In this document: piece by piece, positions 1,417 to 43,020 of the stretch
Position numbering within the stretch: position 1 is the first letter of the stretch
Layout: the number at the start of each line of letters is the position of its first letter
Source of the DNA: an uncultured Acidobacteriota bacterium
Lineage (GTDB): Bacteria > Acidobacteriota > Terriglobia > Terriglobales > Acidobacteriaceae
Length of the DNA: 64,000 nt
NCBI GenBank assembly: GCA_963819365.1
Contig: CAWFVY010000005.1
Coordinates: 8,809-72,808, forward strand
Direction: 5' to 3'
Notes under the pieces: generated by a model
The model's input: only the letters and a program-made list of their open reading frames with translations
The model's database searches: none
What the model was told of the DNA's origin: nothing
Program-made: the position numbers and the translations under genes

Positions 1417-2382
1417 CTAAACCATCGCGCGCTTTCGGACGGGTTGGCCGAGCGCGGCGCGGATCTCCTCTTTGGTGCATCCGGCCCAGCACTTGTAGAA
1501 CCGGGGATCCTTGACCTGAATGGCGAGGTTGTCGCCCGAACGGTCGTGGCCGGAAGCTGCGCAGGAGGGACACCGGGCCCACCAGTTCCGGCTGTCCTTG
1601 CGCGTCGTCCGCACATAGTCGAGAATTCGGAACTCCGGGTAGCGGGGAGATGATGCCGGCGGAGTGTACGGAATCGTGGCGACCGGCCTGTACGCTTCGG
1701 GCAGGCTCATCCCTTCAATGAATGTCCTCAGCTCTGCCTCAGTCAGTTTCGTCAATCGATCGAGATACGCGAGTTGACCTTCGGGAGTGGCTTCAGCTTC
1801 ATAGAACCAGTAACGCCGATTCGTCTTCCGGTGTACGCCGAGCGGAGCACGGATCGCGTTGCCGTACTCGCCGTGATCGAGCTTGTCCTGGCGCGGGAAG
1901 ACTTCTATGCCTTCCTTCAGACCCCCGCCTTTGACCGGAACGCCGAGCCGGAGCGCGAGGTTATAGACATAGATTCGGCATTCGGATGCCAGCAACGGCT
2001 CGGCGCAGAAGATCCAGAGATGACCGCCACGGCGGGATTGCTCCAGCGCGGCGTCCACTCCATCCTGTTTGAGTTCCCATTGCAGCCGGAACAGGGAATC
2101 CAACGCTCCATCGAAGTCGGCGTCAATCGCAACCCACTTTGAACGTTGCGTCTCAGGGTTGATTGCGTAGAGACTGATCGTGACGTCGCCATTGAGGTGC
2201 ATCCGCACCACGCCATCATCGAGCGGTTTTGGTTCCTTGGTCTTCCAATCCCGCGCCGGGTAATAGGGGACGGAACCGTTCGGCAACGGTCGCTCTCCCT
2301 GGATCGCGTAGGCACGCCGGTTTACGAACAGCCGCATGAAGCTGCTTGCCGTTTCCCGGTTTACACAGAACTTGGCATACAT
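1417..2382 (-). CDS. Archaeo-eukaryotic primase (AEP/PrimPol-like) with C-terminal Cys/His Zn finger
   Basis: AEP motif I (WVAIDAD), motif II (SRRGGHLWIF), motif III region (EVFPRQD...GNAIRAPLG); C-terminal CPSC..H..D...KCWAGC; RBS AAGGAGG. Confidence 0.8.
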   Translation of the reverse strand: MYAKFCVNRETASSFMRLFVNRRAYAIQGERPLPNGSVPYYPARDWKTKEPKPLDDGVVRMHLNGDVTISLYAINPETQRSKWVAIDADFDGALDSLFRLQWELKQDGVDAALEQSRRGGHLWIFCAEPLLASECRIYVYNLALRLGVPVKGGGLKEGIEVFPRQDKLDHGEYGNAIRAPLGVHRKTNRRYWFYEAEATPEGQLAYLDRLTKLTEAELRTFIEGMSLPEAYRPVATIPYTPPASSPRYPEFRILDYVRTTRKDSRNWWARCPSCAASGHDRSGDNLAIQVKDPRFYKCWAGCTKEEIRAALGQPVRKRAMV

Positions 2383-3902: not shown

Positions 3903-4715
3903 CTACGACACTCTCAAATCGAGAAGTTCGCGGAGCGGCACAATTTCTGAGCTCGCCGTGTTGGTCAGAGTGCGCGTCTCAAGGAGAGAACGGCGGAATG
4001 CTTCGCTCAGTGCAAAGCCGATTCGCTTCCGAGTCGCGCGCAATTCCATGGCAAGCAGATACAGAATGTCGTCGCTTGAGGTCAGGTACAAGACCGTATC
4101 CGTAGCTTTGTCTCTGTTGAGAGCCTCACAAATTGCGTCATAACGGGATGCTGCCTTCGCGCTTCTCTCGTATTCGATCCCGATCGTTCGTGTGCATCCG
4201 TCGACTTCGATCTCCGCGACGGCGTCATAGTCTTTGATCGTTCCGCCGGCGGCAACCAGGTTCCGCGAGGTGATCTCCACGTCACTCTTCCACGACCGAA
4301 GCAAGCCTGATCGGGCAAGAGCCAGATGGATATTGACCAGTTCCAGCGCGTGAGCGACCTTCGACGGGTGGAGAATCTGCTCCGTGTCACTAGGCAACGA
4401 CACCAGGTAGTGACCGCGCGACTCAAGACATTCAAGACCTTGCTGGGTAATTCCATAGACAGGTTTACCCAGAAACCGCTGTCCATTCAATCTTTCGATC
4501 AGGCCAACTTTTTCGAGTCGCGTCACCCGCCAGCGCAACGAGCGAACGATCGCCTCCAGCATCTCGTGGGCAAGCAGGTCGCGAAGCTGATCGAAAGTGA
4601 TCGCGCGCGAGTTCCGCACTTGGAGCAGAACCGGCACATCACATGTGTCGGACAGGGCGATATAGCCCTTGTAATACCTCACGGGAGCGCTCCTTCGCTG
4701 AGTCGAATTCGGCAT
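3903..4715 (-). CDS. Replic_Relax / MOB_C-type relaxase (winged helix + PD-(D/E)xK-like nuclease)
   Basis: N-terminal wHTH (ITFDQLRDL...RVTRLEKVGLIER...VYGITQQG), H-x-L motif (VAHALEL) and D-x-E-x-E motif (DYDAVAEI...IGIEYERSAK); downstream of VirD4. Confidence 0.75.
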   Translation of the reverse strand: MPNSTQRRSAPVRYYKGYIALSDTCDVPVLLQVRNSRAITFDQLRDLLAHEMLEAIVRSLRWRVTRLEKVGLIERLNGQRFLGKPVYGITQQGLECLESRGHYLVSLPSDTEQILHPSKVAHALELVNIHLALARSGLLRSWKSDVEITSRNLVAAGGTIKDYDAVAEIEVDGCTRTIGIEYERSAKAASRYDAICEALNRDKATDTVLYLTSSDDILYLLAMELRATRKRIGFALSEAFRRSLLETRTLTNTASSEIVPLRELLDLRVS

Positions 4716-5865: not shown

Positions 5866-6635
5866 TCTGGTCCTCTCATGCGCCCTTGAGGGTTGCAGTT
5901 ACGGCGCCGCTCCTGGTCGAGCAAGACTGTCGTTTGGTTGAGGCGCTGCTTCAGATTCTGTTCACTGTTCTGCAACGCTTCCACGCGCCGCTGCAGTAAG
6001 AGATTGCTTTGTTGCAGGCTCGCTGCAGTTGCATCCGGCGCCGAGGCGGCGATCTTCTCTGCCTCCGCTGGCGAAATTCCTTTGCTGTCCGCCAGAGCGC
6101 GAACGCTCTTCGTCAAGCTCCCATTCGTGCCGGATTCCTGTTCCGAAGGCCCTGTTTTGCGTGAAAGGGCTGCTTCAGCATCGGCATTATGCGCTTCGAC
6201 CAACTGATTGAACTGTTCGGTCCGGCGCTCTATCTCGACCCGGTCGCTGACGCGGCCGTTCCATAACTGTGCAATGAGAGACGCTGCAATAAGTTCGCGC
6301 TTGTTCATAGCGCGCCACTGAAAGAGGACAATTGCGACCAGTCCGCAGAGCAGAAGGAGCGTCACTACATTCGACCAGAAGTAGAGATCGTCAATCGTGT
6401 ATCCGACGACGGCATTCCGCGCGGACGCCATTTTGGAGCCGTAGTCGGTGTCATGCGGATTTACTTTGCCCAAAGCGTAATCAAGGAACCCTTGGCGTTT
6501 GGGCGCCGACTGCAGGGTTTGAACGCCTGGCTCGCTCGGGGTTTGACCGACGAATTGGCCGGCGACGCAGCAAAATGCGATCGGCGATAAGCACCCGTCG
6601 GATGACGGCTGGAACTTCGCATCTTCATTCTCCAC
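5862..6635 (-). CDS. Membrane-anchored coiled-coil hypothetical protein
   Basis: TM segment (VVTLLLLCGLVAIVLF) and C-terminal heptads (LQRRVEALQNSEQNLKQRL). Confidence 0.6.
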   Translation of the reverse strand: MENEDAKFQPSSDGCLSPIAFCCVAGQFVGQTPSEPGVQTLQSAPKRQGFLDYALGKVNPHDTDYGSKMASARNAVVGYTIDDLYFWSNVVTLLLLCGLVAIVLFQWRAMNKRELIAASLIAQLWNGRVSDRVEIERRTEQFNQLVEAHNADAEAALSRKTGPSEQESGTNGSLTKSVRALADSKGISPAEAEKIAASAPDATAASLQQSNLLLQRRVEALQNSEQNLKQRLNQTTVLLDQERRRNCNPQGRMRGPE

Positions 6636-8654
6636 CTACCTCGCCGAGAAACAATCCCGCCGTTCTCCTGCGCCGCTGCTTCCGGTTCTCCGCCTCTTTG
6701 AAGCGGAGATTCACACCGACCTCAGGGTCGAAATAGCTGTGCATCTTCGGATAGAGGGAAGGCTCAAGGCCCTCCACCTGAAACCGCGGAACACGCCGAA
6801 CGTGCAAATGGGAGTGGCGGGTGCCTTCGCGGCTGTCCACCATCAGGATCTCCATCTGGCCGACCGGCAGGTTCTTGATGTGGTCTTCACGCGCACGCGT
6901 CTCCTTGATGTCGCTCTCGCTTCCCGTTCCGGTCTCTGTATATTTGGTGGAAAAGATCCCGGTTCTGCGCACCGACAGGCTGCGGCGCTTGGTGGCAATC
7001 CGGGACGATGCTTTCAAAAACCACTGCGCCGTGTGCTCTTCCGAAACGTTCATAATCATCTTCGTTCCCGGGCGCGGACGACACTTCGTCCGCAAACGCT
7101 TGGCTCACACGCTGCAACTGCGGAATGCTCTGGAACGAAAAGAGGAATGAGACTCGCGCTCCGCGGGCGGTCTGGAGTACCTGGGTAAACCCGGGATAGG
7201 CGAAGGGCGAAAACTCATCCAGGATCACCGAAAGCATCGGTTCGTCGGCATCCCGATCACTCGTCGGCTGTGCGTAACGCTTGCCAACCATCAGCTGGAT
7301 GTTCTGAAGCAGGATCTTTCCCAGGGCTTCGACGGCACGCTGATTACGGTTGGCGTTGAGGGAGACAAACAGAATGAGATCCTTGTTGAGAACGTCGTCG
7401 AGCGTAAGCAGGTCCTGATAGGAGCCGGTAACAATCGACAGTTCGTCCTCCAGGAAACTCAAAAGCTCGTTCAAAAGCCCCTGAATCTTCTCCACCCGCT
7501 CCCTGTCTGCAAGCGATCGCTGAAGCATTTTGACCGACATCTCGAAGTTCAACCGCTTCTGCATGGAGATACCCGGCACTGAGGCCAGGCGTGCCTTCGC
7601 AACTCCGATCTGTTCCTCCAGAACCTTCTCATCGAGCGCCATCACCAGCACGTCGTAGACGTTGAACAGTTTTCCCGTGTACTGGAGTATGCGAACAAGA
7701 TCCGAGAGGTACGCCTCCTGGTGTCCTTTGAAGAAGTCTTCGCGCAGCCCGAAGGACCGGAAAATGAAATTCACGTGTTCCTGGTAAGCATCGTCGAGTG
7801 CATAAAACGGGTTATATCGCGCCGATTCCGCAGGGTGGGTTGGATCGATCACGCGTAGATCTTGCAGGCGGCCGGCAGCCTCGATATGCGGCAGAAGGCG
7901 ATGAAGAAACTCCCTCTCGCCCTTGCCGTCAAAGATGATCATCGGCATTTTGCGCGAGCCGAAGCGCCGCATCACATCCTGCGCGATGATGTTTTCGAGA
8001 AAAGTTGACTTGCCAGAACCCGTGCCGCCCACGATGACTCCGTGCTTCATGCGCACGATGTCGGGCCAGAGCCACGGCTCCTTGTGCACGTTGTATCCGA
8101 GCAAAGTAGCTTCACCTTGATTGGCGGCACGGACTGTTGCCGCATCCTTCGATGCCGGGATAAGGATGGCGGGGTGTGGCCAATTCTCCTCTCTTCTTCG
8201 TCTGCGACCAACCAGTTGTGCGATGAGAAGGCCGCCGCCGAAAAACAGGATGGCGCCGTACAGGAAGATTTCAAGACACTGTTGGTTGCTGAGATGGAGG
8301 CGTGACACAGCAACATACCACGCGAACGCGAGCACGGCGCAGGTGAGCAGACACCAGAACGCCTAGCGACATCTTCCGGTCCTCTCTGGCGCAATGTGGG
8401 CTGATCGTAGTAGGGGCTCATCCGCGCCCTCCCACTGAGAAATACACAAAGACCCCAAGCAGAGCACACAGCAAGACCACGTGAGAATGAGCAGTGGACT
8501 GGGTCTCCAGCGGCCCTTCTCATCGATGGGTTTGAGTTCATCAGAGAAAGATTCGAGGAGGGAGCTCTGCAGATTGGTTTCGGCATCGCTCACGGTAGAT
8601 CTGTCTCAGCGCCTGGCGCACTTCGTCTGGCGAAATGTAGCCCTGCGCGTCCAT
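6625..8654 (-). CDS. virD4: Type IV coupling protein VirD4/TraD-like (several apparent frameshifts)
   Basis: N-terminal TMs, Walker A GGTGSGKST, DGKG motif, Walker B VILDEF, QTARGARV...FQSIPQL; pieces 8363-8654, 6887-8335 and 6625-7095. Confidence 0.88.
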
Positions 8655-8656
8655 GA

Positions 8657-9505
8657 CTAGAGAACCGCCTCGACCTTCAGAGGTCCGTTTTGGTCAGCGC
8701 CGAAGTTCAGCTGATAAATCTGCGGAGGGTTGTCCTGTCGAAGTTCCAATGCTGATTACGCCCGTCGTCTTTTCTCCCGGCGCAAGATCGCGCACTACCT
8801 GACTCGGCCTGCATCACATCGATGCCTGAAACTTGTGTTCGCTTTGAAGGTCGTGAAGGTCCGAGACGTGATCTGATGATTCCTGAGACTCACGAGCGAA
8901 ATCGGCTGTTCGGTCGGGACAGGGGCGCACACATCCGGAGTCGTGACCCGGAACGGAGCCTTGGTCTCGTTGGCTACCGAATAGCGAATATAGATGCGAT
9001 CCTTCGCGCGATAGACCTGTTCTAGATCGACCTCGACGCGCCCCGTGGCGGGTTTTTCCGCGTCATGCACGACGTCTTCGACTCCCATCATTGCCTGTGT
9101 AAGTACCAGCGAAGCGATCTTGCGAATCTCTACATCTGACGGCTCGGCCGACGCCTGCGTGCTGCTATGCGGGTTGAGCGCAGGTTCGGTGCGAACCAGG
9201 ACATCCATGTGAGCGAGTTGGCCCGCCGGATCGAGCTCGTAGCTCAGTTCGCGCGATGCGGTCCAGACAAAGAGATTGGTGGACACGCCCTCCCGGAGAG
9301 GCTTCACAAAAACCTTGTCGTCATGTCGCTCGACCTGAAAGCTGTCTGGATCGGCGATCGCAAGCGTCGTCACGGATTCGCCGAATTCGAGAACCGTCAG
9401 ATGATTGAGTGACGTCTCGATGTGACGGATCTGGCTTTGGCTGGTCGTCTGCGCCCCGGCCGCGATCGCACCGAGAGCAAGAAAAAGGATCGTGATCGTC
9501 TTCAT
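8657..9505 (-). CDS. Secreted conjugal transfer protein, VirB9/TrbG/TraK-like (frameshift near 8800)
   Basis: Signal peptide MKTITILFLALGAIAAGA; LTVLEF...DKVFVKP...TNLFVWT matches the VirB9-like N-domain pattern; the C-terminus continues in another frame to TAG 8657. Confidence 0.6.
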
Positions 9506-9535
9506 AGCGGCCTCCCTGGGCGCGGGGTGAGTCAC

Positions 9536-9586: not shown

Positions 9587-12168
9587 TTAGGAATGCTCCA
9601 TTGAATTAGGAACACTCGTGTTTTCGAAGACAAGCGAGCGCTTTCCCGCGTACTGGAAGAGAAATACTCTCTTCTCACACTCCGGGCCTTGAGGATTCGC
9701 CATCCGCTCGACCAGAAATGCCCGCTGCTCATCGTCGAACCAGACATAGCCGTTCACAGTCTTCGGAAGTCGCACACGTACCCGCTGACCACCGGTAACC
9801 TCCGCGAAGGCATCGATCACCTCTTGCGGAAACGACTGGAAGAGAACGGCGCCGGAACCCGAGCCACCTGTGACGACACCATTCATCGCCTGCGCCCATG
9901 CCCGACGGTTCTCCTGTTTACCTTGCGCCCAGTAGTGAACGAATAGATGCAGCGAGCTGAACTGATCCCGTGCGTCCTGTTCGTGTTCCCACAGGGCTGC
10001 CTGCGCCTTGTTTCGCGCAAGCACTGCAGACTTTCTTTTCTCCTTGTCCTCGCTCCCGCGCACAACTTCCCACTGCGCTTGAGCGTCCTTGAGTTGCTGT
10101 TTGACTTCGTCCTCGCGCTGGACAATCCGACTTGCGATATCCCCGTAGATCGAATTGATCAACTGGCATTCCTCGAACATCTCCCGAGTAACGGTTTCAC
10201 CCGAAAAGAGTCCTCGGAAGTCTTCGATGGACATCTTCTCTTCGAAACCGTTGCCGGTTTCGTCGGGAAGAAAGCCAACCTCCTTGCGCAGGACGTTATA
10301 GAGCCTCCCAACCTTATCCGTATCCGCGACTTCAAGATGGGACGGCAGGTCCGACACTCTGCGCTCACGCTTGTAGCGGAGCCAGGGCGCCGGCGCTACC
10401 TCCTTCCTGATTTCACTGACAACGGATTCATCGATCTCGACCCTGTGTTTCAGGGAATCGAGTGCGTTCTGCAGTTGCTCGACGAGCTTGTAGGCCAGGT
10501 CTGGCCGTCCCGCCGAAAGGCATGAGGTCTTCAGATCGGTGATCGAGCCGATCCGGTTTCCACGCGCCTTCATGGCAACCGGGCAGGCATTCCACCAGGG
10601 AGACTTGGCTTTCTGATGCTTTGTCTTTTCCTGGTGAAATCTCTCCCCATACGCGATCCTTCCCGCCACGAACTTCGGGAACTGATCGGAGGGCATTACG
10701 CAGATGGTGTCGAAGTCGAAGTCGCCGCCGTTTTTGCTCGCGGTCTTCGAATGAAGGATGTACGTCCCCTCCATGCGAAGCTGCCGATCAAGAAGATAAG
10801 CGACCTGCGATTCGTCAAGGTCGGCTGTTCCGAGCGCCTGTTTGAGCGCTGGAACAAGCTCGGTGTTGGTGAGATGACGAACGGGTAAAAGATCCTCCTG
10901 CATCCGTATTGGATACCGGATGCACAGGCCCTTCTCCGCCGCCAAGGATGTGATCGCGCTGTCTTCAGGTATCCAGTCGGACGCCGAGAGAATCTTTCCT
11001 CGGTGCTCAATCAGGACACCGTCGTCCGCCAGAGCGAACGATGGCAGCTTCAGATCCGCGCTCGTGCAGGCACGAAATGCCCAGCGGGCCAGCTTGCGGT
11101 TCAGTTGGTTGAAGACATAGGGAATCTTGATTGCATTTCCGCTACGGTCCGCCAACAGAACCGCCTCCGCCGGGTCACATCCCTCTGAAGCCGGATCGTC
11201 CTCTCGCTCCAGGGAGTCGGGGTCAAAGCCGACACCATCTTCGATCGTTGTAACCTCGGACTTGCCGATTACCTCGAAAAGAGCCTGGTAGTCACCCTCG
11301 TCCCATGCCTTTCTCATTGCCTTGATTCGTTCAAGCGCCCACAGCTTCAGTTCAAACTGCAGCGCCTCTTCCGAAGCGTGTTCGATCAAGGTGTAGCTTG
11401 ACCCAAACTCCGATTGACGGGAGATCTGTTTGATCCCGAGAATCGCCGGACCCGTGTACATGCGGCCCGATGTGCCCAGTTGAGGGAAGAAATCGCACAC
11501 CTCCCTTCAAGGGCCGGTTTGCAGGCGCTCTCGGGCAAAATGACATCGACCGCGAGCCTGTCGGCCACGCGATCGCTCATTGCCTTTAATGCGCCTTTCG
11601 CCTGCTTCGGTTCGCTTGCGTCAAATGCCAGCCGAAACTGGCAAAAACGATTCGTGCCGATCTTGAGCTTCCGGTAGAGGGATTCACGCGCCCAGCCACG
11701 GCAATCGTTGGTGCCAAGGACATGATCCTTGACCACAGCGATGCGCAGGTCGGGTTCCTCGACCATCAGCTTGCAGTCGGAGACGAGGATCGCAAAGTAC
11801 ACGATCGCCGCCTCGGGCCAATGCTGAAAGCGCTCAGCTATCGGGCCGGCATGCGCCTTGTCGACGAAGTAGAACTTGCCATCCTTCGCCGAACCGCTGG
11901 CGCCCACCAGCTTGTACTCGACCCCGCCGTAATGAAGGCTCGCCATGCGGTTTTCGACCACAGACTGCTCATACGGCGTCAACTCATACGGCACGCTGAC
12001 GCGCGCGACTCGGATGCCAGGATAAAGCTGACCGAGGAGCTTTCCCTCGAGCGTATCCTTCCGTCCGAGCTTGGTTGGCTTGCGGGTCACTTCACCGGAC
12101 GCATCAATCCTCAGTTCAAGAATGAGCTGCTGATCGAGTGCCGCGTTTTGTGTCCTGTTCGCTGTCAT
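9587..12168 (-). CDS. Single-chain two-barrel RNA polymerase-like protein (RdRP/YonO family), ~860 aa, frameshifted near 11490-11520
   Basis: Ordered motifs NDCRG, QFRL...AKGAL, ILPESACK, CIRYP, GGDFDFD, IGSITD and ALDSLK parallel the RdRP/QDE-1 motifs DGxG, QIR..GxKG, L.xSxxK, RxP, GxDxDGD, LGxI and AVDxxK. RBS GTGAGGAG. Confidence 0.8.
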
Positions 12169-12409
12169 GTTCTCCTCACTTGTCTGGCGCTTCGAGACGA
12201 AGTGATTAGAGACTTGGCTGAACGCCGGTCCTCAATCTCTTCGCCTGGCCGCCCGGGTTAGGGGTGGGGTGTTAGCCGAACCAGGCTTCGAGAGTGCAAA
12301 CCGGGTCAGCGGAATTCCTCATCGCGTGAAGCGATAAGGCGTCAAATGAGGCGACATGAGCCGTATTTCAGGTTTGTCTCCTCTTTGAATCCGAGCTGAC
12401 CTTGCGGCC

Positions 12410-12712
12410 CTATTTGCGCAGGGGCCGCTTTACCAATGTCGGAGATCCTCCCTGTATCTCCGCTTCCGCCTTGTAGGCGAGAACCGTATAGATCACGCCG
12501 TTCTTTGACTGAAAAGCTTTGATCAGAGCCTCACCTTCACTTGCCGCTTCCGCGCCAAGCTCGGGTTTCTCAAACGACGATCCGTCCTTGGCGAGAAAGT
12601 ACCGAACCCCCTCCTCAACTTGCCGGCGAGATTTGCGCGTGTTCCTGGGCTTTGATACCTGTGCCGGTTGCGGCTGCATCTCCGCAACCCGAGCGACCGT
12701 AGCTTCCATCAC
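12410..12712 (-). CDS. Hypothetical protein (100 aa)
   Basis: RBS AAGGAGG, overlaps the upstream stop; directly precedes the RNAP-like gene. Confidence 0.7.
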   Translation of the reverse strand: MMEATVARVAEMQPQPAQVSKPRNTRKSRRQVEEGVRYFLAKDGSSFEKPELGAEAASEGEALIKAFQSKNGVIYTVLAYKAEAEIQGGSPTLVKRPLRK

Positions 12713-13451
12713 TGACCTCCTTTGTTTTGAGCGGCGCCACTCTCCGGAATAGCATCGGGGGCATTCAGGATGCGATCGCGGCGCTCGCCGTCGATCGGGC
12801 GTTCGCTGTAGTCCGCAATCCAGAGCCCGTCCGGGTTCACATCCGAACGCTTGTCCGCAATGAGGCGCACCCGGTACTCGTTGACGAAATGGTCGGTTGT
12901 CTCTGTTCCGTTGGTCAGATGATGAACGTCTTTCACGCCATAGACCAGATAAGTGAGCGGCTCACCACTGACCGCTTCGATCTCGCGCAGATGGAACGCG
13001 GACTGGATTTGTCCATCATCGATCTTGCCGCGCGTATTGTCGTCCGCCATTGCCTTCAGCGTGTACGCCCGCAGGTTGCGGGTCATCATATTGAGGCTGC
13101 GGCCCAGTGGTCGTCTACGTCCGCCGGCGAGTAGTTAAGGTAGCTCGCCAGGAACCGCTTCACAAACGCTTCATCAAGGAATTGATCAGTCCCGCCGGTC
13201 GCGACGTCTGTGACAGCGCCTTTTGCTGGTTTGCCCAGCACCGAGGCGTCGCCGTTCGGGCCGATGCGAATCACTGTCGGCGGCTGCAAGCGTACGAAGA
13301 CTGCAAATCCGATCGCGAGCAGCGCAATCGGTATGGTCAAGAAAGCGAGCAGCCATGCGCGATTTGCGTTCGCCCTGAGTGCTCCATCCATCTCGTAGTA
13401 CTTCGGCCTTGAGAATGTCGCTTCATCCGTTGCAACAGCGCTGTTTTTCAT
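12709..13451 (-). CDS. VirB8/TrbF-like inner-membrane protein (one frameshift at ~13088)
   Basis: N-terminal TM (RAWLLAFLTIPIALL), FVKRFLASYLNYSP...MMT helix, C-terminal NPDGLWIADY (cf. VirB8 NPxGxxV). Confidence 0.7.
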
Positions 13452-13459
13452 GAGCCCTC

Positions 13460-14872
13460 CTATTCGTGCTCCGTCCCTCGACTAGCTGCTCCGGCGATGC
13501 TTCCCGCCGCGATACGTGCGGCATGGTAGGCAGTCCAGGTTCCCAGGTTGTAGCGATGCACACTCGGCCCTCTTTTCACTGCCGCTGTTGATCTGGTCAC
13601 GACCCTGGGTGTTGCTCCTGCAGCATTAGGTTGAGTCAATATGTTGCTCGAGCTTTCCGAGGGCGACCGTGAGTGTTCCAGAGCCCTCGTCACCCGCGTG
13701 TCTGCGTCCCCATCACTTCACTGATCGAGCTGCGGATCTGGTCCGCATGCCCTTCCAGAGTCGGGCTGCCGCTGCCAAGCGAGAATTCCGTTGCAGACGA
13801 GGACGAGGCCGCGGGAATCTGTTGCGGTGGCGCGGGTTGGTTGCCGCCGGCCGCGGACGTGAGTGCTCGCGCAGAACCTGCGGTCGTGCGCTAGAGGATG
13901 CTCCTGCTGAAGTTGCGCCTGCGGATCCTGCTCGCGCTGCTGCCACACCGGCAGCAGCGCCTTCAATCCCTGCCGCTCCTGCGGTCAGCGCAGTGACCGC
14001 CGTGCCCACCATCGCGACTGCTGTGCTGCCGACATCGCCGCTAACAATGCGCTTGGCAATGAATGGAATCACTGCGATTGCCAGAGAGTAGACAATGCTC
14101 ACGATGCCGATCAGGAAGGAGCCTTCGAGGTTTCCGAGCCCGCCGAGGAAATTGTTCTGGTTGAGCATCTGCCCAACCTGGCCCATCTGAACCGCGGTGA
14201 GCAGCGCTCCAAAACCGCCATAAAGGATCGGCCAGGCATTCCAGACAAAGATGTTTTCGATATATGACTTGGCTAGGCGGTTCGCGCCGCCGAGAGGCAT
14301 CAGAGCAATAACAATCGGCCCGAAAATATACAGAATGCTGCCGTAGAAGATATAGAAGAAACCAAAAATGACGACGACAATTGGATAGAGGAGATAGGCA
14401 ACAAGGATTAGGAGGCCATCGATCAGGCCCGCGATAGATCCCGGTGATGAGGCCCCACATCTTTTGAAATCCGACCTGACTGAACTGTGTCTGCAGATCA
14501 TTCCCCCAGTTTCGAAAGACGTTCCCGCCCGGAAGCATTGCTCACCCAATTCCCGGCATTCACAAAGCCCTGATTGATCGTCGTGAATACGGTTCCGTAG
14601 TTCATCACCACAACCGCGGTGACCACATACTTGATCAGACTTGTGCCCAATCCACGGACGTCCCCTCCGTGCAGGGCCGATTGATAGACCTGCCACAGGA
14701 AGCCGACGAGCAGGACCACATAGGCGACGTTCTGCATTCCGGAGGTAATGCCGGTGGAGTCGATCCCCGCCCTTGCCTGAGTCAGAAAACGCTCGAACAG
14801 ATTCAGCTGTGTTGACTGGAAGAACGCGAGCATCGCCTCGGGATGTAAGTTAGCGCACAACATAGCTGTCAC
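13460..14872 (-). CDS. VirB6/TrbL-like polytopic membrane protein (frameshifts)
   Basis: Multiple TMs, YIFGPIVIALMP...YIEN...W..WP.LY pattern and an Ala/Gly/Ser-rich tail typical of TrbL. Confidence 0.72.
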
Positions 14873-15780: not shown

Positions 15781-16633
15781 TTATCGCGCCGTCAGGGCTC
15801 CGGTGATCAAACTGTTGATTCCACCGGTCGCGGCGGTTCTGCGTTTCACAAGAACGTTGTCGTGCGCAATGCGGCCTGCCTCCTGACGCAACTCCGCCGC
15901 AAGCATCTTCTGCATGTACGCCTGGCAGCGGAGATTGGCGACCTGCGCTTGGGCGGTCAGGAACGGATTCGAACCGGGTGTGCTCACCGCAACCTGGTTT
16001 TCCATTTGATTGGCGGTCTGAAGAATGACATCCGCGCCCTGATCGGCGATCAAGGTTGTTTTGAGATTCTCCTGCCCTAGCGCGTCGTCCACGTCCATCA
16101 TCACGCGGTCTTGTGGCGAAGCGGTGTTTAGCTGCGGGATAGCGCCGTAATTCGAAGTGAAGCTCGTCTGCAGATGCGGGAATTTCTGTCGACAGGCGGC
16201 TATGCAGGATGCTTTCGAACTGTTGCGGCCCCGGAGTCACGGCGCTTGTGAACGGCGTGTTGAACACCTGATTCATCTGCCCGCGATAAGTGTTGATCGA
16301 ATTTGCAACGAAGCCTCGGGCCTGGTTGATTGCCGCCAGCGGCGCAACCGTTGTCTGATAGAGCTTCTGCATCTGCTGGGCAATCTGGTTGATGGCTTGA
16401 GAGAGCTGCCGATGTCGTTCTGAATCGAGCTGAAGATCGCGTCGAACACGCTAAGGAATTGCCCTTGAGCGAGCTTGGGCAGGGCAAAGCACGTCTCGAT
16501 CACCAGAACAACAATGAGCACTCTCCTCTTCCAGCGAATCTTGCGTACCCCGCTTTCGGCCGCACCTCGATCGTCCTTATACGGCTCTCCATTCAGAAGT
16601 AGCTTCATCTCGGGTTGGGTATTGTTCAGTCAT
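15781..16633 (-). CDS. VirB5/TrbJ-like secreted protein, copy 1 (frameshifts)
   Basis: Paralogous to 14869-15770 (PLAAINQAR vs PLTAINQAK; MMMDVDDA vs MTDMTDA; ITGALTAR vs INGALTNR). Confidence 0.5.
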
Positions 16634-19279
16634 TGGCTCATCGCCTCCTGCATCTCTCCGGAGAGCTCGACCGGCAAAGGCGCCAGATCCGCCAGCCCCC
16701 TCGGATATTGGGCGGCAAGTTCTTCGTAGGCCTGGATCAACGGCAGTGACTGATGCTGGCGCAGCCACCATTTGCGAAATGCTCGTTCCCGTGCGTATGT
16801 CGTAGTGATCCAGTAGTCCACGGGGCTGGGAACAATCCGGATTGCGTGCGTCGACTCCGCCTTCTCCCCAATCGCAATCAGGAACTCGGCGCTATGACCC
16901 TTCTTCGGGTGAGCGAAGGTCTTGATCTGATTCAGCGCCGTCTCGTTCAAGTGAACATGCTCCCGCAGAGCAGTCATATCGCCAGGCTGTTTGCCGATGA
17001 TCTTTGTGGTCGCATTCTTCACGATTCCGGCGCCATGCTCATTGGGTTTGTCGGGTGTGCCGACAAAATCTTCGGGAGTCTGGCTGATCCCCCAGACGCT
17101 TGCGTTGCGTTTGCGGGCTGTGCGGAAGAGTTGCACGACGACGCCTGCGAGGATCGGCGACTCCAGCAGCGCCCAGCATTCGTCGAGCAGGACGATGCTT
17201 GGCTGACCGGTCATCCCCGATGCGCGGTACGTGGCCGTGTGAGCGATCAAGAGACTCATGGCCCGTTCGAGGCGCGGATCGTCTTTCAATTTCTCGACAT
17301 TGAAGTAGAGCCAAGGATTGTTCAGTTGGACCGTGGTCGGCCGGTCAAAGAGCCGCGCGTAAGGTCCCTCGTCAACCCAAGCCCGCAGCTTCGTCGAGGC
17401 CATCTGCGCCATCGCGTTGATCTTCTGATTGCGATCCCGATCCTGCCAGTGGGCCAGTTCCGCGGCCAGATCTCCGAAGAGCGGAATCGGGTTCGAGGTC
17501 TTCGCGCTGCACCTCTTGTACGTTGAGGCGATGGCTTCGAGCAGAACGCTGTCGAGCAGGTCGATGTCGAGGTCGGGCGGCGTATTCTCGCCCAGCATGT
17601 GCCGCGTGAGGTTCTTAAGAAACGAGATCTGGTCGTTGGAAGGCTGGTCTTCTCCTCTGGGCAAGTCCCAGGGATTGATCGTCTGGTCGCTGTCGAGCGA
17701 CATCTCGATCATCTCTCCGCCCATCAGTTCCACTAATGGCTGATAGGAATCACCGCGCTCGAGGATGGAGATGAGCGGGTTCGCGCGCGCTGCCATCAGC
17801 AGCATCTGCTGAGCGGCAAGAGTTTTGCCGCCTCCGCTTTTCGCCATCAGCAGGCCGTTCGCATCGGAAAGATCCGGATCGAACATCGAGAACGGAATGA
17901 GCTGGCGATAGGGCGTCTCAAAGAGAATGAGCGGGCTCCTCCGTGTCCCGGTCCACGGCATCTCTATAGGGACAAGATCGGCGGCATTGGAGGTAAGCAT
18001 GTCCTGGTCGCGTTTGTCGGCCTCAGCCATGCCCGGTAACGTCCCCAGAAAGATCCGCCGCTTGGCGATCGTCTCAGCCACAGCCTTCGCGCCATTCATG
18101 TGAGTGAAGGCGTTCAGAACCTCTTGAGTCCGATTGGCGAGTTCGCGCTCGGATCGTTCGAGATCGTGCAAGGTGATTGCCGGTTGCGAGGTGCGCACCA
18201 CGACGGAAAGACTGAGCTTGGCCGTCTTGAGAGAGGAGGAGATGATGTCTCGCTGCACCTGGATGAGCTGCGCCTGAGCTACCTCGGCCTCGGGATTCGA
18301 TTTGAAGTTTCCGTTGGCGTCCTTCTGCGCGGCTGTCATTTTCTGGAGGCGCTTTTTGTAGCTCTTGAGGACCTTCACCTGGTCTGGGATCACGACCTGC
18401 CCACTGACGACAACCGGGAAGCCAAGTGTCGAGAAGTTCTGCAGCATCCCCGGAAAAGTCGCATCGGGAAGTTCCTTCAGGCTGACAACGGCGTAGAGAT
18501 ACCCATCGATGTTCAGGTAGGTCTCGGTTTCGTTGAGGATGCTCGCCTCGACCGCCTGGGACCTCGCGCTGCGATACTCAATCATCTCCTCCGGTGGCAC
18601 ATACGGCCGCCGGTCGCGCCGGATTGGGTGCTGCGCATGCTTCAACTCCTCGAAGAGTTCTTGTGTCGAGAGTCTCCGGGGCCCGAGGTTGGCCGCCTCC
18701 ATCGACCCCTCGATGCCCCGGAGGATGGATTCGAACTCGGCCAGATAGGTCTCGTGCTCCTTCCGCGCACGCTGGATGGCCTTCTTCTGGCTCAGAGTGA
18801 ATCCACCAAGACTGCGATTCTGTTGAGTGGAGTGGTAAAGCTTCGCGTGAATGCGCGGGTCCCAGATCAAGTACACATGCAGCCGATTCTCGAAGAAGAA
18901 GCCGCTGTTTTCCTTCTGTCGCCACATCCGAAGCCGGTGCGCATCGAGGGCCATTACTTCCGACTGATCAGTCCGCTGTTCGTGGATGTAGCTGTTCGAG
19001 GAGATCTCCGAGATGCTCAGAAATCTCGTAGCGGAACTGAACGCGCATGCTGACATCGGGAACACTGCGAAAGAGCGCCTCAAGCATCGACTTGTTCTGG
19101 TTGCGATCTCCATCCGTCGCAAAGTACGCGAGGATCCCCCGCAACTCGTAACCGGCGACAAACGCCCCATTGGTGCGCACCATGATGTTGTCCCCAAGGG
19201 GGAGATCGCGCAGAGGCAGCAACTCGCATACCGCCGGTACTTTGAGCCTTCTATCGTGTTCTGCTTGGGTCACCGGCAT
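16630..19279 (-). CDS. virB4: VirB4/TrbE-like conjugation ATPase (frameshift near 19000)
   Basis: Walker A AKSGGGKT, Walker B LLDECW, RTARKRNASVWGISQ; RBS AGGGAG before ATG 19279. Confidence 0.92.
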
Positions 19280-21452: not shown

Positions 21453-21484
21453 AGAATGAGTGCGGAACCGAAATTCGGTCAAAT
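21453..21484 (-). promoter_or_regulatory. ICE promoter motif copy B, upstream of the pilin-virB4 operon
   Basis: ATTTGACCGAATTTCGGTTCCGCACTCATTCT (TTGACC-18-CATTCT). Confidence 0.6.
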
Positions 21485-22221: not shown

Positions 22222-22589
22222 CTCTATTCGGGAACGACGATTACCCAAGTCGCACTTTGGGTCATTGGGAAGGATCTTTACCCAATCCGGAATTGGGTAA
22301 TCGGGAACAACAGATTCCTCAATTTGCACACTGGGTAATCGGGCATGTTTCTTGCCCAATCGCGAAGTGGGTCAACGGGACCGATCTTTGCTCAATCGGA
22401 ATTGGGTCATCGGGAACAAAAATGACTCATTCTGCAGACTGGGTCAATGGGACCGTTGTTTGCTCAATGGCGAAGTGGGTCAACGGGACCGATCTTTGCC
22501 CAACTTCACATTGGGGCATCGGGAGCAAAGATTGCCCAACTGCGTACTGGGTCATGCGGACCGACCTTGACCCGAACGGGAAGTGCGTC
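22222..22589. repeat. Degenerate ~36-bp tandem array (9 full units + partial) with ~108-bp higher-order period
   Basis: TGGG(T/G) starts at 22258, 22294, 22332, 22368, 22403, 22440, 22476, 22512, 22548; each unit TGGGTCA.YGGGA...T(G/A)C(C/T)CAA. Confidence 0.9.
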
Positions 22590-22744: not shown

Positions 22745-24007
22745 CTACTGAACCGTTGGGCTGACCTTGTGAAGCTCGGAAGGCGTTTGTTCGTGTTTGG
22801 TAAACACGACGTAGATCTTCGTGTCGGCCGGAACGGAGACTACCACACGGCTGTTGGCATTGAGGCTCATCACCTCCGAGTCTCCCGCCGTGCCGATATT
22901 CTCGGCAAGCCGCTCACGAAGCATGTCGTCCTCAGAAAACGCAGCGCTGGTGTTGTTCCCGGCAACTTCTGCAAGCACCGAGCCGAGACCCGATGCCGCC
23001 CGCACCAGAAAGTTCTTACCCGTGTTCTTCCCGTACACGCTTCCTTTGATGGGTCCGAGGTCCAGCCCAGTTCCGACAGCGTCGATCTTCTCCCGGGCTC
23101 CATCGAGAAGTTCGATCTCGTCGAACTTCACGCTCACCAGTCCGCTTCGGTCGGCCTGCTGGAGCTGACCGTACACGCGTGCGCCCGCAGGGACGATAAT
23201 TCTGTCGCCGATCGCGTAGGTGTATTCGACTACGGCTACGACAGGGGCCAGCACAGCGCTCGATATCTGCGTCTCAAGCTTCGCCTGAATGCGCGTACCC
23301 GGTGTCAGTTCCAAGCGAGGAGTACCATCCTCGCCGGTATTGAGCTTCTGTGCAGCCAACGCTGGGCTTTGCGCCACACTTCGCACAAAGACCAGAGACG
23401 GCTCCTTGAGGGTGTTCTGTTGCGCTTGCGGCGTTTCCGCGTTGGGAGTTCCGCCATAGGGCGCCGGATCTTCCCACTTCTGTTGCGTGTCTGCGAAAGA
23501 GGGTACATTTCCCAGGGAGCTGGCAACAGCAGGCTTGCCGGCAAACGGCTTCAAACCTGAGCTATTGTCCAGTGTTCGTGTCCGACGAATATCCCCTGGA
23601 CCGAGCTGCCCACTGCTGTTATCCGGCGCCGGCGTGTGCTCGGTATCCATGAGGGGTGTCACACTCCCTTTGGGCTTCGGCGACTGCTCCTGTTTGGCCT
23701 GCTGCGAGGGCTGCTTAACTGCCGCTAGTTTCTTCGGAGACTTGCCAACGATCGCCGCGAAAACAAAGAAGAGCACCGCAACTGCAAGTCCGCCTCCGAG
23801 GAGCATCAGTTTGCCCTTGCTTATTCCTTCAGCTCCCTTGACGGCAGTTCGCGTTGCAAACCGGGTGACGGGTTCCGCTTTCTCCGCGCCATCGATAGGC
23901 TCGGGCGCGCGAATCCGTCCTTGCGAAACCGCCGGCTCTGACGATTCTGCGACAGGAGTAGTGTTCATGCTCCCGTTTCCATTCCTGTTGTTCTCATTGG
24001 CGTTCAT
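22745..24007 (-). CDS. virB10: VirB10/TrbI-like protein
   Basis: Single TM, Pro-rich linker, C-terminal LTPGTRIQAKLETQISS...IVPAGARVYG...VPADTKIYVVF. Confidence 0.82.
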   Translation of the reverse strand: MNANENNRNGNGSMNTTPVAESSEPAVSQGRIRAPEPIDGAEKAEPVTRFATRTAVKGAEGISKGKLMLLGGGLAVAVLFFVFAAIVGKSPKKLAAVKQPSQQAKQEQSPKPKGSVTPLMDTEHTPAPDNSSGQLGPGDIRRTRTLDNSSGLKPFAGKPAVASSLGNVPSFADTQQKWEDPAPYGGTPNAETPQAQQNTLKEPSLVFVRSVAQSPALAAQKLNTGEDGTPRLELTPGTRIQAKLETQISSAVLAPVVAVVEYTYAIGDRIIVPAGARVYGQLQQADRSGLVSVKFDEIELLDGAREKIDAVGTGLDLGPIKGSVYGKNTGKNFLVRAASGLGSVLAEVAGNNTSAAFSEDDMLRERLAENIGTAGDSEVMSLNANSRVVVSVPADTKIYVVFTKHEQTPSELHKVSPTVQ

Positions 24008-24024: not shown

Positions 24025-24981
24025 CTACTTGCCATCGCCGGATATGGGTGGAGTGAACGGAAGATGGATCAAGATCGGATGATCCACCTGATCCGCTTGG
24101 GCAATCTGCAGAAATAGCTTTTCGGTCGATTCCTTGAAGTTCGGCCGATCAAAGACGACCACGCCATCGGCGCGTTCTCCCGGCTCAAGGCGCGTTGTAC
24201 TCAACCTGTAGTCCCGGATTTCCAGTTGGTCCGAGATAATGCCTTTCCCCTCCTTCTTTTTCTTCTTGGTGGCCTTGCGACCTGTGATCTGGATTTGCGG
24301 AGGGACAATCTCGATAGGCTCATTCGAGCTGTTCAGGATGGAGTACGAGATCATGGTCTGATTGCTCAACTGCCGCATATCGCCAATCGATGTCTCGATT
24401 TGCTTGTCCTCCCATTTCGTCCACTTCGGAGCGTTCACGCTCTCCTGCAGCTTGAACACCTCGTCGAGGCTCGACAGCGGCGCCGAACGCAAACCGGCGG
24501 TCCCGCCACTCACGCCCTGCGCGGGTTCCTTAGTGGGCGCGCTTCGCGTCGCCAGGGATTCAGGATCGGCGGAAATGAGGAAGCTCCGCGTCGTTCTGTA
24601 TTCGATCAGAAAATCAACCGGCTGCGTTGGATTCGTGACACTCGCGCCATCGCTGACCAGTTCCAGCGTGACATGCTGTCCTGATTTAGTTGCGATGAGG
24701 AGGTTCGACTGCGCAGCCTCTTTAACGATCGGTTTGACGTAGACATACTCCGGCTCGCCTTCGTTATGTTCTGCCTTGAACTCACCCGGGCTGCCGAGGA
24801 TTACGGATGTGATCTCCTCCGGCATGCGGATGGTCGATTCAAACTCTGGCCTGAGATGAAGGACCGTGACTTCTCTCGGATTGATCGTGACAGTGGCGAC
24901 ACGTGCTCCAACTGGTGTGTCGCTCGCGCTGAGACGAAGCGGAAGCAGGACTGCGACAGGGATGAGCCAGCGAAGTTTCAT
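24025..24981 (-). CDS. VirB9/TrbG-like secreted protein
   Basis: Signal peptide; VTVLHLRPEFESTIRMPEEITSVILG...VYVKP...SNLLIAT; adjacent to virB10. Confidence 0.65.
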   Translation of the reverse strand: MKLRWLIPVAVLLPLRLSASDTPVGARVATVTINPREVTVLHLRPEFESTIRMPEEITSVILGSPGEFKAEHNEGEPEYVYVKPIVKEAAQSNLLIATKSGQHVTLELVSDGASVTNPTQPVDFLIEYRTTRSFLISADPESLATRSAPTKEPAQGVSGGTAGLRSAPLSSLDEVFKLQESVNAPKWTKWEDKQIETSIGDMRQLSNQTMISYSILNSSNEPIEIVPPQIQITGRKATKKKKKEGKGIISDQLEIRDYRLSTTRLEPGERADGVVVFDRPNFKESTEKLFLQIAQADQVDHPILIHLPFTPPISGDGK

Positions 24982-26562: not shown

Positions 26563-26617
26563 CTGAACCTCCTCCAATGCGGAGACAGCATGAGACGGCA
26601 TCAAAACTCGGTCAAAT
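26560..26617 (-). promoter_or_regulatory. ICE promoter motif copy C plus leader/RBS, upstream of the moxR-virB1-virB9-virB10 operon
   Basis: ATTTGACCGAGTTTT...CTCATGCTG..TCCGCATTGGAGGAGG..GTG (TTGACC-17-CATGCT). Confidence 0.7.
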
Positions 26618-27887: not shown

Positions 27888-27945
27888 CACGGAGCCTCCT
27901 CCAATGCGGAACCAGCATGAGGTGATTTGAAAAACTCGGTCAAAT
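27888..27945 (-). promoter_or_regulatory. ICE promoter motif copy D plus leader/RBS (near-duplicate of 26560-26617), overlapping the integrase stop
   Basis: ATTTGACCGAGTTTTTCAAATCACCTCATGCTGGTTCCGCATTGGAGGAGGCTCCGTG. Confidence 0.65.
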
Positions 27946-29043
27946 CGGGACGTGGCAATCAGGCCCGGCAACCTCCCCCTGTTGTGGGGTTTTGCTACTC
28001 AGCCGATTCCTGCGGACCTCCAGTTTCTCAACAGCGTCTTCGACATCGGAATGGGCTACGATCGCATATCTTTCGAAGACACTCCGCGTCTTCCAGCCGC
28101 CGATCTTCATGATCACGCCCTCGGCGATGCCGGCTCGCCGATAGTTCCTTGCTGCTGTCCGGCGCAGGTCGTGAAAGAGCAAATTGGGAACCCCCGCGGC
28201 TTTGCACGCCTTTTCCCACGTACCTCGAAAATCTTTCACGGGTTTCCCATTTGGCCACGTGAGCACGTAAGCATCCGGTGCCTTGCCTTGGACGCATAGA
28301 GTCAGGAGTGCGTGAATGATCTTTGTCATCTTGACCTCTCGGCCCTCTTTGTTCTTCGTGGTGCCAGGATGGAGTCGAATGGTCCAGTTCTCGAGCTCAA
28401 TTTGATTGACTCTCAGCTTCTTTAGTTCGCTAATGCGCCATCCATAGGTAGCTCCGAGTTCTACAACCGTTTGGAACCAACGCTCCGAGCAAGACTCCAA
28501 CAGCTTTTCGAATTGAGCATCTTCCAGAAAGCCTTGACGGATATTGCTCTCAGCGAGCCGCGGGAATGCGGGAACAAAAATGATCTTCGGAGGTGTTGCC
28601 CTCCGCCCAAGACTGAACATCCTCTTAAACGCCGCGAGTTCCCGATTGATGGTTCCGTTTGCGGCTCCCTCGACTTGGCGTCTGTCGACGTATGCGTTCA
28701 GCAGGCTGCTCGTGACCTGCACCGCACGAAGAGATCCGAAAAATGGCCGGATATGAAGACGCCATCGCGCCTCGCAGTCGTCCAGCGAAGCCTTACCATT
28801 AATGCGGTAGTCGCGGAGGAAGTCCTCGGCAAGCTCCGTGACGCGAGTGCGCTCTACCGTGGGTCCGATGAATTTTCCCGTCATCACTTCCGCCACGCGG
28901 AGATTCAATGCTCGTGTTGCCTTGCGCTTGTCGGACGTTCCTGTCGACTCCCGAAAGGGCTCCCCATTTCGATAGAACTTAATCCACCAGACACTACTGT
29001 CCTTCTGCCGATAGATTCTCCCGGTGCCACGTGGGCGCCTCAT
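27940..29043 (-). CDS. int: Tyrosine recombinase/integrase
   Basis: TYGWRISE (R), TTKNKEGR (K), FHDLRRT (HxxR), GGWKTRSVFERY (catalytic Y); N-terminal arm-binding domain GTGRIYR...WWIKFY. Confidence 0.96.
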   Translation of the reverse strand: MRRPRGTGRIYRQKDSSVWWIKFYRNGEPFRESTGTSDKRKATRALNLRVAEVMTGKFIGPTVERTRVTELAEDFLRDYRINGKASLDDCEARWRLHIRPFFGSLRAVQVTSSLLNAYVDRRQVEGAANGTINRELAAFKRMFSLGRRATPPKIIFVPAFPRLAESNIRQGFLEDAQFEKLLESCSERWFQTVVELGATYGWRISELKKLRVNQIELENWTIRLHPGTTKNKEGREVKMTKIIHALLTLCVQGKAPDAYVLTWPNGKPVKDFRGTWEKACKAAGVPNLLFHDLRRTAARNYRRAGIAEGVIMKIGGWKTRSVFERYAIVAHSDVEDAVEKLEVRRNRLSSKTPQQGEVAGPDCHVPI

Positions 29044-29374: not shown

Positions 29375-29405
29375 ATCGTGGAGTCAAACGCTGACTCGGT
29401 CAAAT
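29375..29405 (-). promoter_or_regulatory. ICE promoter motif copy E, upstream of xis-int
   Basis: ATTTGACCGAGTCAGCGTTTGACTCCACGAT (TTGACC-17-CACGAT). Confidence 0.55.
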
Positions 29406-42500: not shown

Positions 42501-43020
42501 GAACGCGTCTGCCTTCGTCAGCGCGTTGACTTCGCACTGGCAGGGATCCGGAATCCTTGTGGCTCAATCGGGCACGCCGAATACTATTCTCGACTTCGGC
42601 GCGGGCGCGGTTTACGGAAACTATCCCTTTGAGAATCGGGCGCAGTTGAGCGGAAAGCGCATTACTACTTCCGGGTCGATGTACTCGCGCGTGCAGGGCA
42701 ATTATCTCAATGCGGATGCGTTTACAGATGCGCCCGAGGCCCCGCACGGCACCGGACCGTTCGATACAGACTTCGGCAACAGCGGAGTGGGCGTTGTGCG
42801 CGGGCCGGGGCAGCGGGATATGGACCTGGCGATTGAGCGTGCCATTCGGATTTCAGAGCGGCACAGCTTCCACCTGCGGGGCGAATTCTTTAACGCGACG
42901 AACACTCCCAACTTCGGGAATCCGGTCAATATTGTCAACGCTGGACCGGCGTTCGGAAAGATCTTCTCAAAGTCGAATAACCCGCGCATTATTCAGGTAG
43001 CGCTGAAATATCAATTCTAG
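39542..43020 (+). CDS. TonB-dependent receptor with carboxypeptidase-regulatory-like N-domain (frameshift ~41990)
   Basis: GAIRGTVYDPTG..VPNA, LPLSNRNFTQ, EFKVQT..YDA..GR..GA, terminal PRIIQVALKYQF. Confidence 0.9.

Follow-up and report, generated by a model that had tools for sequence, protein, structure and literature searches.

Single-chain RNA polymerases (RNAPs) with two double-psi beta-barrels (DPBBs) are established in phages, yeast killer plasmids and eukaryotic RNA silencing, and the polymerases of eukaryotic RNA interference (RNAi) are thought to derive from the same clade. RNA-dependent RNA polymerase (RdRP) homologues of bacterial selfish elements were reportedly treated by Iyer and Aravind in 2012. 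Our literature search, in which the families of Iyer and Aravind lay outside the comparison, found no type IV secretion system (T4SS) operon and no characterised conjugation system with such a polymerase. YonO is a proven DNA-dependent RNAP (PMC5467207), and a paper of 2010 had pointed out YonO-like proteins in genomes of firmicutes, cyanobacteria and Bacteroides (PMC2919709). Eight residues are common to all two-barrel RNAPs: one barrel contributes three Asp and an RxP motif, and the other contributes an Asp and two Lys (PMC2919709). The virion RNAPs of phages transcribe early phage genes, and the conjugative primases TraC1 and Sog are transferred to the recipient, where they initiate synthesis of the complementary strand (PMC5512222). 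In a survey of proteins delivered together with DNA, conjugative elements were represented by primases only and phages by N4-type polymerases (PMC5512222). Here we analysed a window of 64,000 nucleotides from an uncultured Acidobacteriota bacterium (assembly GCA_963819365.1, contig CAWFVY010000005.1, positions 8,809 to 72,808 of the forward strand). It carries an integrative and conjugative element (ICE), and inside the transfer operon of this element lies a gene for a predicted polymerase, which we refer to as the polymerase gene. We found that the polymerase gene has a fixed place in the T4SS operon of this ICE, which is widespread in Terriglobales (Acidobacteriota). Judging from its predicted structure, the protein is very probably a homologue, at the level of fold, of the two-barrel polymerases. 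The coordinates of all features, counted from the first letter of the window, are given in Table 1.

In the window the polymerase gene is divided between two overlapping open reading frames (ORFs) of 260 and 637 amino acids, both on the minus strand. An earlier note on this DNA had joined the two into one gene of ~860 amino acids across two 1-nucleotide shifts near 11490-11520, and had listed seven motifs in the order expected for RdRP-like enzymes. We translated 9587-12168 in all three frames of the minus strand and used the closest intact relative (P0001) for comparison, a protein of 859 amino acids from an ENA metagenome contig that is 97% identical to the window copy. Results from this showed that both ORFs are pieces of a single 859-amino acid gene. 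Relative to P0001, the reading runs in frame 1 through ...ILPESACKP, in frame 2 for ~9 codons (KGGVRFLP) and in frame 3 from ...LGTSGR, and tblastn places residues 1-222 of P0001 at 12168-11503 with 98.6% identity. A nucleotide alignment with the orthologue from another locus (L001) contained 107 mismatches and exactly two gaps, both of them single surplus letters in the window, at ~11,510 and ~11,483, 27 nucleotides apart. The shifts had thus been placed essentially correctly. All seven motifs also lie in the order claimed, with the first three (NDCRG, QFRL..AKGAL and ILPESACK) in the upstream ORF and the last four (CIRYP, GGDFDFD, IGSITD and ALDSLK) in the downstream ORF. Seen with their surroundings, the motifs of the upstream fragment are GASGSAK.GK, GTNDCRGW, QFRL..AKGALK and ILPESACKP. 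The downstream fragment encodes the predicted second barrel, which includes IRYP and the catalytic loop GGDFDFD; GNRIGSITD, LQNALDSLKH, long helices and a beta domain at the C-terminus are also located in it.

Around the gene, the minus strand of the window carries in this order a promoter-like motif, small pilin-like genes, VirB4, two unassigned genes, the VirB6-like and VirB8-like genes, a gene of 99 amino acids, a leader of 240 nucleotides, the polymerase gene, a CagX/VirB9-like gene, a small gene, VirD4, three genes that include a candidate relaxase, and a primase of the archaeo-eukaryotic (AEP) type. On the other side of the element are VirB10/TrbI, a second VirB9-like gene and a tyrosine integrase. 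The neighbours named in the earlier note were therefore recovered in the case of the VirB8-like, CagX/VirB9-like and VirD4 genes; the relaxase that it also named is a sub-threshold match to Replic_Relax only. Its observation that the ICE has no phage structural genes was confirmed among the ICE proteins tested against PHROGs, where the integrase gave the sole match. To survey linkage we used 55 acidobacterial loci with at least 20 kb of DNA. The gene order of the window recurred with VirB4 in 54 of the 55 loci, VirD4 in 53 and CagX in 54, and it was also found in L001. The arrangement VirB4 ... polymerase - CagX - VirD4 was observed around three distant metagenomic homologues as well (P0121, 44% identity; P0143, 33%; P0155, 28%), and an AEP-TOTE primase was present at two of these three loci. 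The association with VirB4 and VirD4 is near-absolute within the ICE family and holds in distant relatives of 28-44% identity. These data show that the linkage of this polymerase family to conjugation genes is robust.

To describe the protein itself we used an alignment of 24 full-length homologues with identities down to 28%. Residues Q177, R179, K191, K195, P212, K217, P218, R417, P419, L427, P428, G481, D482, D484, D486, N537, G540, Q566 and K573 were invariant in this alignment, and T153, N154, D155, G158 and W159 were kept in at least 90% of the sequences. The Asp triad of the catalytic loop is thus invariant in 24 diverse homologues. Across 70 loci the loop reads GGDFDFD in 64 and GGDFDYD in 4, so that DxDxD is kept in 68. 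An AlphaFold2 model made from the alignment had a mean pLDDT of 85.6 and a pTM of 0.83. In this model an N-terminal alpha/beta domain is followed by a beta-rich module (~134-255), a helical connector, a second beta-rich module (~373-492) bearing the Asp loop, a long helical region and a small C-terminal beta domain. A Foldseek search of the PDB gave five matches at E<1e-3, all of which are single-chain two-barrel phage RNAPs: P74-26 gp62 (8f5m), the phage gp64 RNA polymerase (8f72) and the P23-45 gp96 virion RNAP (8h2m, 8h2n). Their E values were 3e-7 to 3e-6, with a probability of 1.00 and a TM of ~0.5 normalised on the target. Weaker matches, at E 0.1-1, were to isolated DPBB domains, plant Pol IV and bacterial beta' chains. 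Among the viral structure predictions of BFVD, the top matches were uncharacterised phage proteins, with E down to 8e-11. The earlier note had named QDE-1, YonO and phi14:2 gp66 as comparators. The predicted fold is indeed that of single-chain two-barrel RNAPs, with the Thermus-phage polymerases as the closest solved structures; QDE-1 and phi14:2 gp66 were absent among the 50 Foldseek PDB matches listed.

We also looked for the eight residues common to two-barrel RNAPs. Invariant or near-invariant candidates are present for all eight, namely D482/D484/D486, R417-x-P419, D155 (at least 90%) and K191/K195/K217. D155, K191, K195 and K217 are located in the first barrel, where their equivalence to Rpb2 D837/K979/K987 was judged by eye only, and we infer the residue-by-residue mapping of this barrel from that comparison. 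Invariance of an Asp triad, an RxP motif and basic residues across such deep divergence is typical of a maintained active site and suggests that one is present here.

Sequence comparisons placed the protein less closely. PF05183 is present in several YonO relatives; it gave no match to the window ORFs or to the intact proteins P0001 and P0066, even at E up to 10. We also compared our alignment by hhalign with an alignment of the YonO family, for which the YonO sequence was taken from the SPbeta record, and obtained E 0.067; the value against P23-45 gp64 was 0.073, and that against YonO alone also lay within 0.02-0.07. The alignments with YonO covered the catalytic half only. When halves were compared, the C-terminal halves gave E 0.017 as compared with 0.2-0.6 for crossed controls. 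The N-terminal halves gave E 0.05 in a different register, and hhalign did not recover the matches between N-terminal motifs that had been made by eye. Three elements fall opposite their counterparts in YonO and gp64 in these profile comparisons: the DxDxD loop, the GNxIG segment after it and the LDxLK helix. The catalytic loop is matched to DNDGD of YonO and DYDGD of gp64. Membership in the PF05183/YonO family or the gp64 family is not demonstrable at the level of sequence. Of the earlier assignment to the RdRP-like family, the two-barrel fold (as predicted) and the motifs stand; PF05183 gave no match, and the profile scores (hhalign E ~0.07) were not significant.

Relatives of the polymerase are numerous. 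A word-indexed search returned more than 1,200, mostly of 846-873 amino acids and every one annotated 'hypothetical'. An exhaustive HMMER search of 1.84 billion cluster representatives gave 558 clusters at E<=1e-3. In a scan of one genome per species we found at least 498 encoding loci, and the best 80 are nearly all from Terriglobales (Acidobacteriota). Cultured carriers include Tunturiibacter psychrotolerans X4BP1, Telmatobacter bradus DSM 23630, Acidicapsa dinghuensis, Granulicella sp. L60 and others, and in the first three of these the orthologue is intact. The frame is open throughout the polymerase gene in 64 of 70 full-length orthologous loci. Intact copies, whose absence elsewhere would have told against a working gene according to the earlier note, are thus numerous. 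Differences between the window copy and the L001 orthologue fall on codon positions 1, 2 and 3 in the ratio 15:3:89, a skew that points to purifying selection on the gene. More distant relatives (23-25% identity) were found by tblastn on plasmids of Pseudanabaena and Oscillatoria, and no tblastn match to the polymerase protein was found in 50,697 phage records. One of the plasmid proteins, of 787 amino acids and 24% identical to the polymerase family, is encoded on Pseudanabaena galeata plasmid pPg_05 (L002, 11770-14133) next to genes for methyltransferases, a DEAD/DEAH helicase, a PLD nuclease and a Rho-N domain protein. A paralogous polymerase-like gene with ~45% identity lies outside the window in the same genome, at contig C24:51853-54419, presumably in a second ICE.

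What might such a polymerase do in a transfer operon? Intact copies are probably catalytically competent RNA polymerases, as the conserved residues and the model suggest. By comparison with characterised single-chain relatives, the intact protein would be an active Mg2+-dependent polymerase that makes RNA. It would be produced together with the transfer apparatus, with the leader giving translational control, and would act on the element's own DNA in connection with transfer. RNA made on the transferred single strand could then serve as primers for complementary-strand synthesis or as first transcripts, and the site of action would be either the recipient, after passage through the T4SS, or the donor. 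We favour action on single-stranded element DNA coupled to transfer, tentatively and at somewhat less than an even prospect, because the gene appears to be co-transcribed with the secretion machine and is not at the head of a regulatory cascade, because conjugative elements send the primases TraC1 and Sog and phages send RNA polymerases (PMC5512222), and because the nearest solved structure, gp96, is of a protein delivered with DNA (PMC10770324). The more specific idea, by the same analogy, is that polymerase made in the donor passes the T4SS with or ahead of the strand and makes RNA on the incoming single-stranded DNA in the recipient; this we consider doubtful. Equally doubtful is that its products there would be primers for the complementary strand, first transcripts of establishment genes, or both. 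If true, this would be a conjugative counterpart of the injected virion RNAPs of N4, crAss-like and P23-45 phages, and it would be independent of transcription by the recipient. The explanation as a whole, in which a two-barrel polymerase is a fixed transfer gene of the ICE, makes RNA in connection with transfer and is interrupted in the window by artefactual breaks, seems to us evenly poised between right and wrong.

Several observations weigh against this explanation. The polymerase protein has no relevant match in Pfam, NCBIfam or PHROGs, and PDB sequences gave none either by phmmer or with the 24-sequence profile; hhalign E values of only 0.02-0.07 overall amount to no sequence-level match to a polymerase. 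The C-terminus is variable and non-basic across the alignment, so that no classical VirB/D4 C-terminal signal is visible. The element also encodes an AEP primase and a single-stranded DNA-binding protein (SSB), which could cover priming. The canonical -35 hexamer in the promoter-like motif fits transcription by the host RNAP or by a donor-side transcriptase. Linkage to the T4SS is looser for the homologues of 23-25% identity on cyanobacterial plasmids; there was no T4SS gene within 12 kb of the homologue in the sole cyanobacterial plasmid neighbourhood inspected. Finally, the density of frame breaks in the ICE is ~10 times that of the chromosomal DNA in the window, which a uniform error rate does not explain.

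The main rival is that the polymerase is an element-specific transcriptase that works in the donor at ICE promoters, from which it would transcribe the long operons for transfer and establishment independently of host sigma factors, like SPbeta YonO or P23-45 gp64. All characterised relatives from bacterial viruses are DNA-dependent transcriptases (PMC5467207, PMC10770324), and the ICE has a motif that such an enzyme might recognise. The ICE part of the window contains five copies of the 15-nucleotide sequence ATTTGACCGAGTTTT, all of them on the coding strand and upstream of a gene or operon. At two syntenic sites, one ahead of the first transfer gene and one ahead of the AEP primase, the motif is conserved in 49 loci down to 50% protein identity, which is beyond the need of a bare -35 hexamer. 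However, the motif includes a TTGACC -35 hexamer, and in at least one copy a plausible, TACAAC-like -10 follows at 17 nucleotides, so that the host RNAP together with an ICE regulator explains it equally well. In addition, the polymerase gene sits within the operon to be transcribed rather than heading a cascade, and no copy of the motif precedes it. The motif could represent either a sigma-70-type promoter of the host, accompanied by an operator, or a recognition site of the element's polymerase; it neither proves nor excludes a role as a dedicated polymerase for the transfer operons. We regard a donor-side transcriptase as an unlikely, if serious, alternative. A block of ~50 nucleotides, consisting of the motif and a 5' untranslated region with GGAGG, was also observed in two 90%-identical copies before different ICE genes (26565-26617 and 27892-27945), which suggests co-regulated paralogous control regions.

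It is also conceivable that the window holds a true pseudogene in a decaying ICE that can no longer transfer. We counted frame breaks as protein-level switches against the L001 proteins. The window has 14 switches in ~10 ICE genes, including VirB4, VirD4 and the VirB6-like and VirB8-like genes, and the C24 paralogue is likewise read in several frames. The same genome has intact rpoB and rpoC genes, and in the ~25 kb of chromosomal DNA in the window just two genes are split. Such a concentration of at least 14 switches in the element would fit decay. By contrast, substitutions in every ICE gene are mostly at third positions and nonsense substitutions are nearly absent, unlike neutral decay. Three other metagenome-assembled genomes (MAGs), L003, L005 and L056, gave 9-10 switches in the same test, as compared with 0-3 in isolates and other assemblies. 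These three MAGs have the same project-style names and 'contig_N' records, which we take to be those of a long-read soil MAG project. Similar breaks in MAGs of one project and not in isolates point to a cause in sequencing or assembly. The two split chromosomal genes are accessory genes, a TonB-dependent-receptor-like outer-membrane protein at ~42,000 (ORFs 39542-42037 and 41983-43020) and a WecG-type glycosyltransferase at ~47,450 (ORF 46788-47633), and they suggest a background of indel errors or pseudogenes in the assembly. On balance, the two frame changes in the polymerase gene are quite likely errors of the assembly consensus, and true decay of this copy is improbable. The frameshifted ICE genes in public MAGs of the L003, L005 and L056 type are probably technical as well. 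The protein-level count replaced a count of blastn gaps (~34 frameshifting indels in the ICE), which was uninformative since comparisons between isolates give the same counts through compensating gaps. A genome-wide measure of ORF density did not separate the ICE from the rest. The polymerase gene was also frame-broken in L071, L072 and L076.

Another possibility is that the enzyme is RNA-templated, as in the QDE-1/RDR group, and copies element RNA such as its own leader for antisense or double-stranded RNA regulation or for conflict between elements. The clade includes RNA-dependent enzymes, QDE-1 using both RNA and single-stranded DNA (PMC10770324), and the leader resembles a structured RNA that is co-inherited with the gene in both paralogues. 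A profile of the leader found exactly two sites in the 5.7-Mb genome, one in the window and one directly upstream of the C24 paralogue. Conservation of the leader across 20-24 loci exceeds that of the flanking coding DNA. Its hairpin CCTTATCGC/GCGATGAGG is swapped for CCCTACA/TGTAGGG in distant loci and for GCCCTG/CAGGGC in the paralogue, with double changes at five of the nine hairpin pairs. In a structure drawn manually, 85% of cells are paired as compared with 37-55% for slid controls. RNAalifold recovered the outer helix GGTCAGC/GCTGACC on a shorter alignment; on the whole leader alignment it gave one helix only, owing to a register shift of one column in the distant sequences. These results support the idea that the leader is a structured element. 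The Shine-Dalgarno sequence GGAGA can pair with an upstream TCTCT and is paired in the minimum-energy folds of both leader copies, with weak covariation for this helix. The data are compatible with a role in translational control of the polymerase gene, and a control element that sequesters the Shine-Dalgarno sequence is a simpler account of the leader than a template. Moreover, the bacterial and phage members tested so far all use DNA templates, and nothing at the locus resembles partners of RNA silencing. We therefore regard an RNA-templated role as quite improbable. The leader had no match in Rfam at gathering or E-value thresholds, and nhmmer searches of the distant loci L083-L085 and of the cyanobacterial plasmid gave no copy of it. 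A small ORF inside the leader was considered and rejected, its frame not being conserved. Least credible of all is a polymerase-derived but non-polymerising structural or DNA-handling accessory of the T4SS, which the fixed place among structural T4SS genes and the lack of sequence matches to active families would allow, and against which the invariance of the Asp triad, RxP motif and basic residues over deep divergence speaks.

Table 1. Features of the element in the window, with coordinates counted from its first letter
Feature	Coordinates	Strand	Remarks
AEP-type primase (AEP-TOTE domain)	1417..2382	-	in 47/55 loci
Candidate relaxase	3903..4715	-	intact orthologue matches Replic_Relax just under Pfam cut-off, E 3.9e-5
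VirD4/TraG coupling-protein gene	6628..8422	-	several frames in window
CagX/VirB9-like gene	8660..9535	-	directly downstream of polymerase gene; also delimited as 8795-9535
Polymerase gene, downstream ORF fragment	9587..11500	-	residues ~226-859
GGDFDFD codons (DxDxD metal-binding loop)	10709..10729	-	read from sequence
Polymerase-like gene, upstream ORF fragment	11386..12168	-	residues 1 to ~220, then out-of-frame run-on
Zone with two one-base length differences from intact orthologues	11483..11510	-	frame 1 to 2 to 3
Conserved structured leader	12169..12409	-	directly upstream of polymerase gene, ~240 nucleotides
Gene of 99-100 amino acids	12410..12712	-	directly before the leader; conserved; in 54/55 loci
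VirB8-like gene	12709..13451	-	two ORFs in window; PF04335 weak, E 4e-4 for intact orthologue
VirB6/TrbL-like gene	13463..14863	-	fragmented, four frame switches
VirB4/TraC-type ATPase gene	16630..19279	-	one frame change in window
Promoter-like motif, ATTTGACCGA(A/G)TTT	21470..21484	-	before long transfer operon
Promoter-like motif, further copies	2428-2442, 26603-26617, 27931-27945, 29391-29405	-	
TrbI/VirB10 gene	22745-24007		
Second CagX gene	24025-24981		
Tyrosine integrase	27940..29043	-	near right end of element; phrog_1, E 8e-48

Two further features of the element and its relatives were observed. An array of ~36-nucleotide units (a 78-nucleotide repeat family in five copies) lies at 22244-22575, between the VirB10 side and the start of the transfer operon, and could be an operator array or an oriT. 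In one distant relative of the element the transfer genes and the AEP primase are separated by an RNase H gene (L085:16365-16835). It would fit processing of RNA:DNA hybrids and is absent from L001 and the window.

A polymerase in a T4SS operon hints at an undescribed RNA-synthesis step in conjugation. If the explanation that we favour or its main rival is true, conjugation would have an added step, either self-provided priming or transcription on the transferred strand, or an expression of transfer genes that does not depend on the host, and either could help explain how the ICE becomes established in distant hosts. The element occurs in hundreds of soil acidobacterial genomes, and with it the known range of the clade from which RNAi polymerases presumably arose would widen to a conjugative element. 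The window copy itself is of limited value because its frame breaks are probably assembly errors. The intact orthologues in cultured strains make the question directly testable.

The polymerase has no Pfam or NCBIfam match to the core T4SS families (VirB1-VirB11, VirD4) and shares with them only its position in the operon. Other non-phage, single-chain two-barrel homologues, all uncharacterised, are the YonO-like proteins encoded in genomes and on plasmids of cyanobacteria and firmicutes, together with the NCgl1702-type RNAPs of mobile elements (PMC2919709, PMC7824862), which are very distant from the polymerase described here and, at the one plasmid copy inspected, have no T4SS nearby. As in the YonO/QDE-1/RDR group (PF05183), both predicted barrels are in a single chain, and their order is the same. 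A comparison by eye shows motifs colinear with those of YonO (YonO first: TDGCG/NDCRG, RL..KG/FRL..AKG, SQFK/SACK, RSP/RYP, DNDGD/DFDFD, NIGE.SN/RIGSITD and IDFAK/LDSLK). Unlike the polymerase of the ICE, YonO is a late-gene transcriptase of a prophage without linkage to a T4SS. The Thermus phage RNAPs (gp64, gp62 and gp96) are likewise single-chain two-barrel enzymes in which the DxDxD loop is followed by a helix with an (A/L)xD..K motif, and gp96 of P23-45 enters the target cell with DNA (PMC10770324). They are phage proteins of ~600 residues or the N-terminal module of a tape-measure protein, whereas the protein described here has 859 residues and is encoded in the T4SS operon of an ICE with no phage genes nearby, and the hhalign E of 0.07 between them is not significant. 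The nearest functional analogy, as far as an analogy can be drawn, is with the conjugative primases TraC1 of RP4 and Sog of R64/ColIb. Their fold is unrelated, being of the Toprim/DnaG type or AEP; the protein of the ICE is predicted to have two barrels instead, its translocation is only putative, and the ICE has a separate gene for an AEP primase. Like the predicted polymerase, TraC1 and Sog are polymerising enzymes of the transfer region that are made together with the transfer apparatus (PMC5512222).

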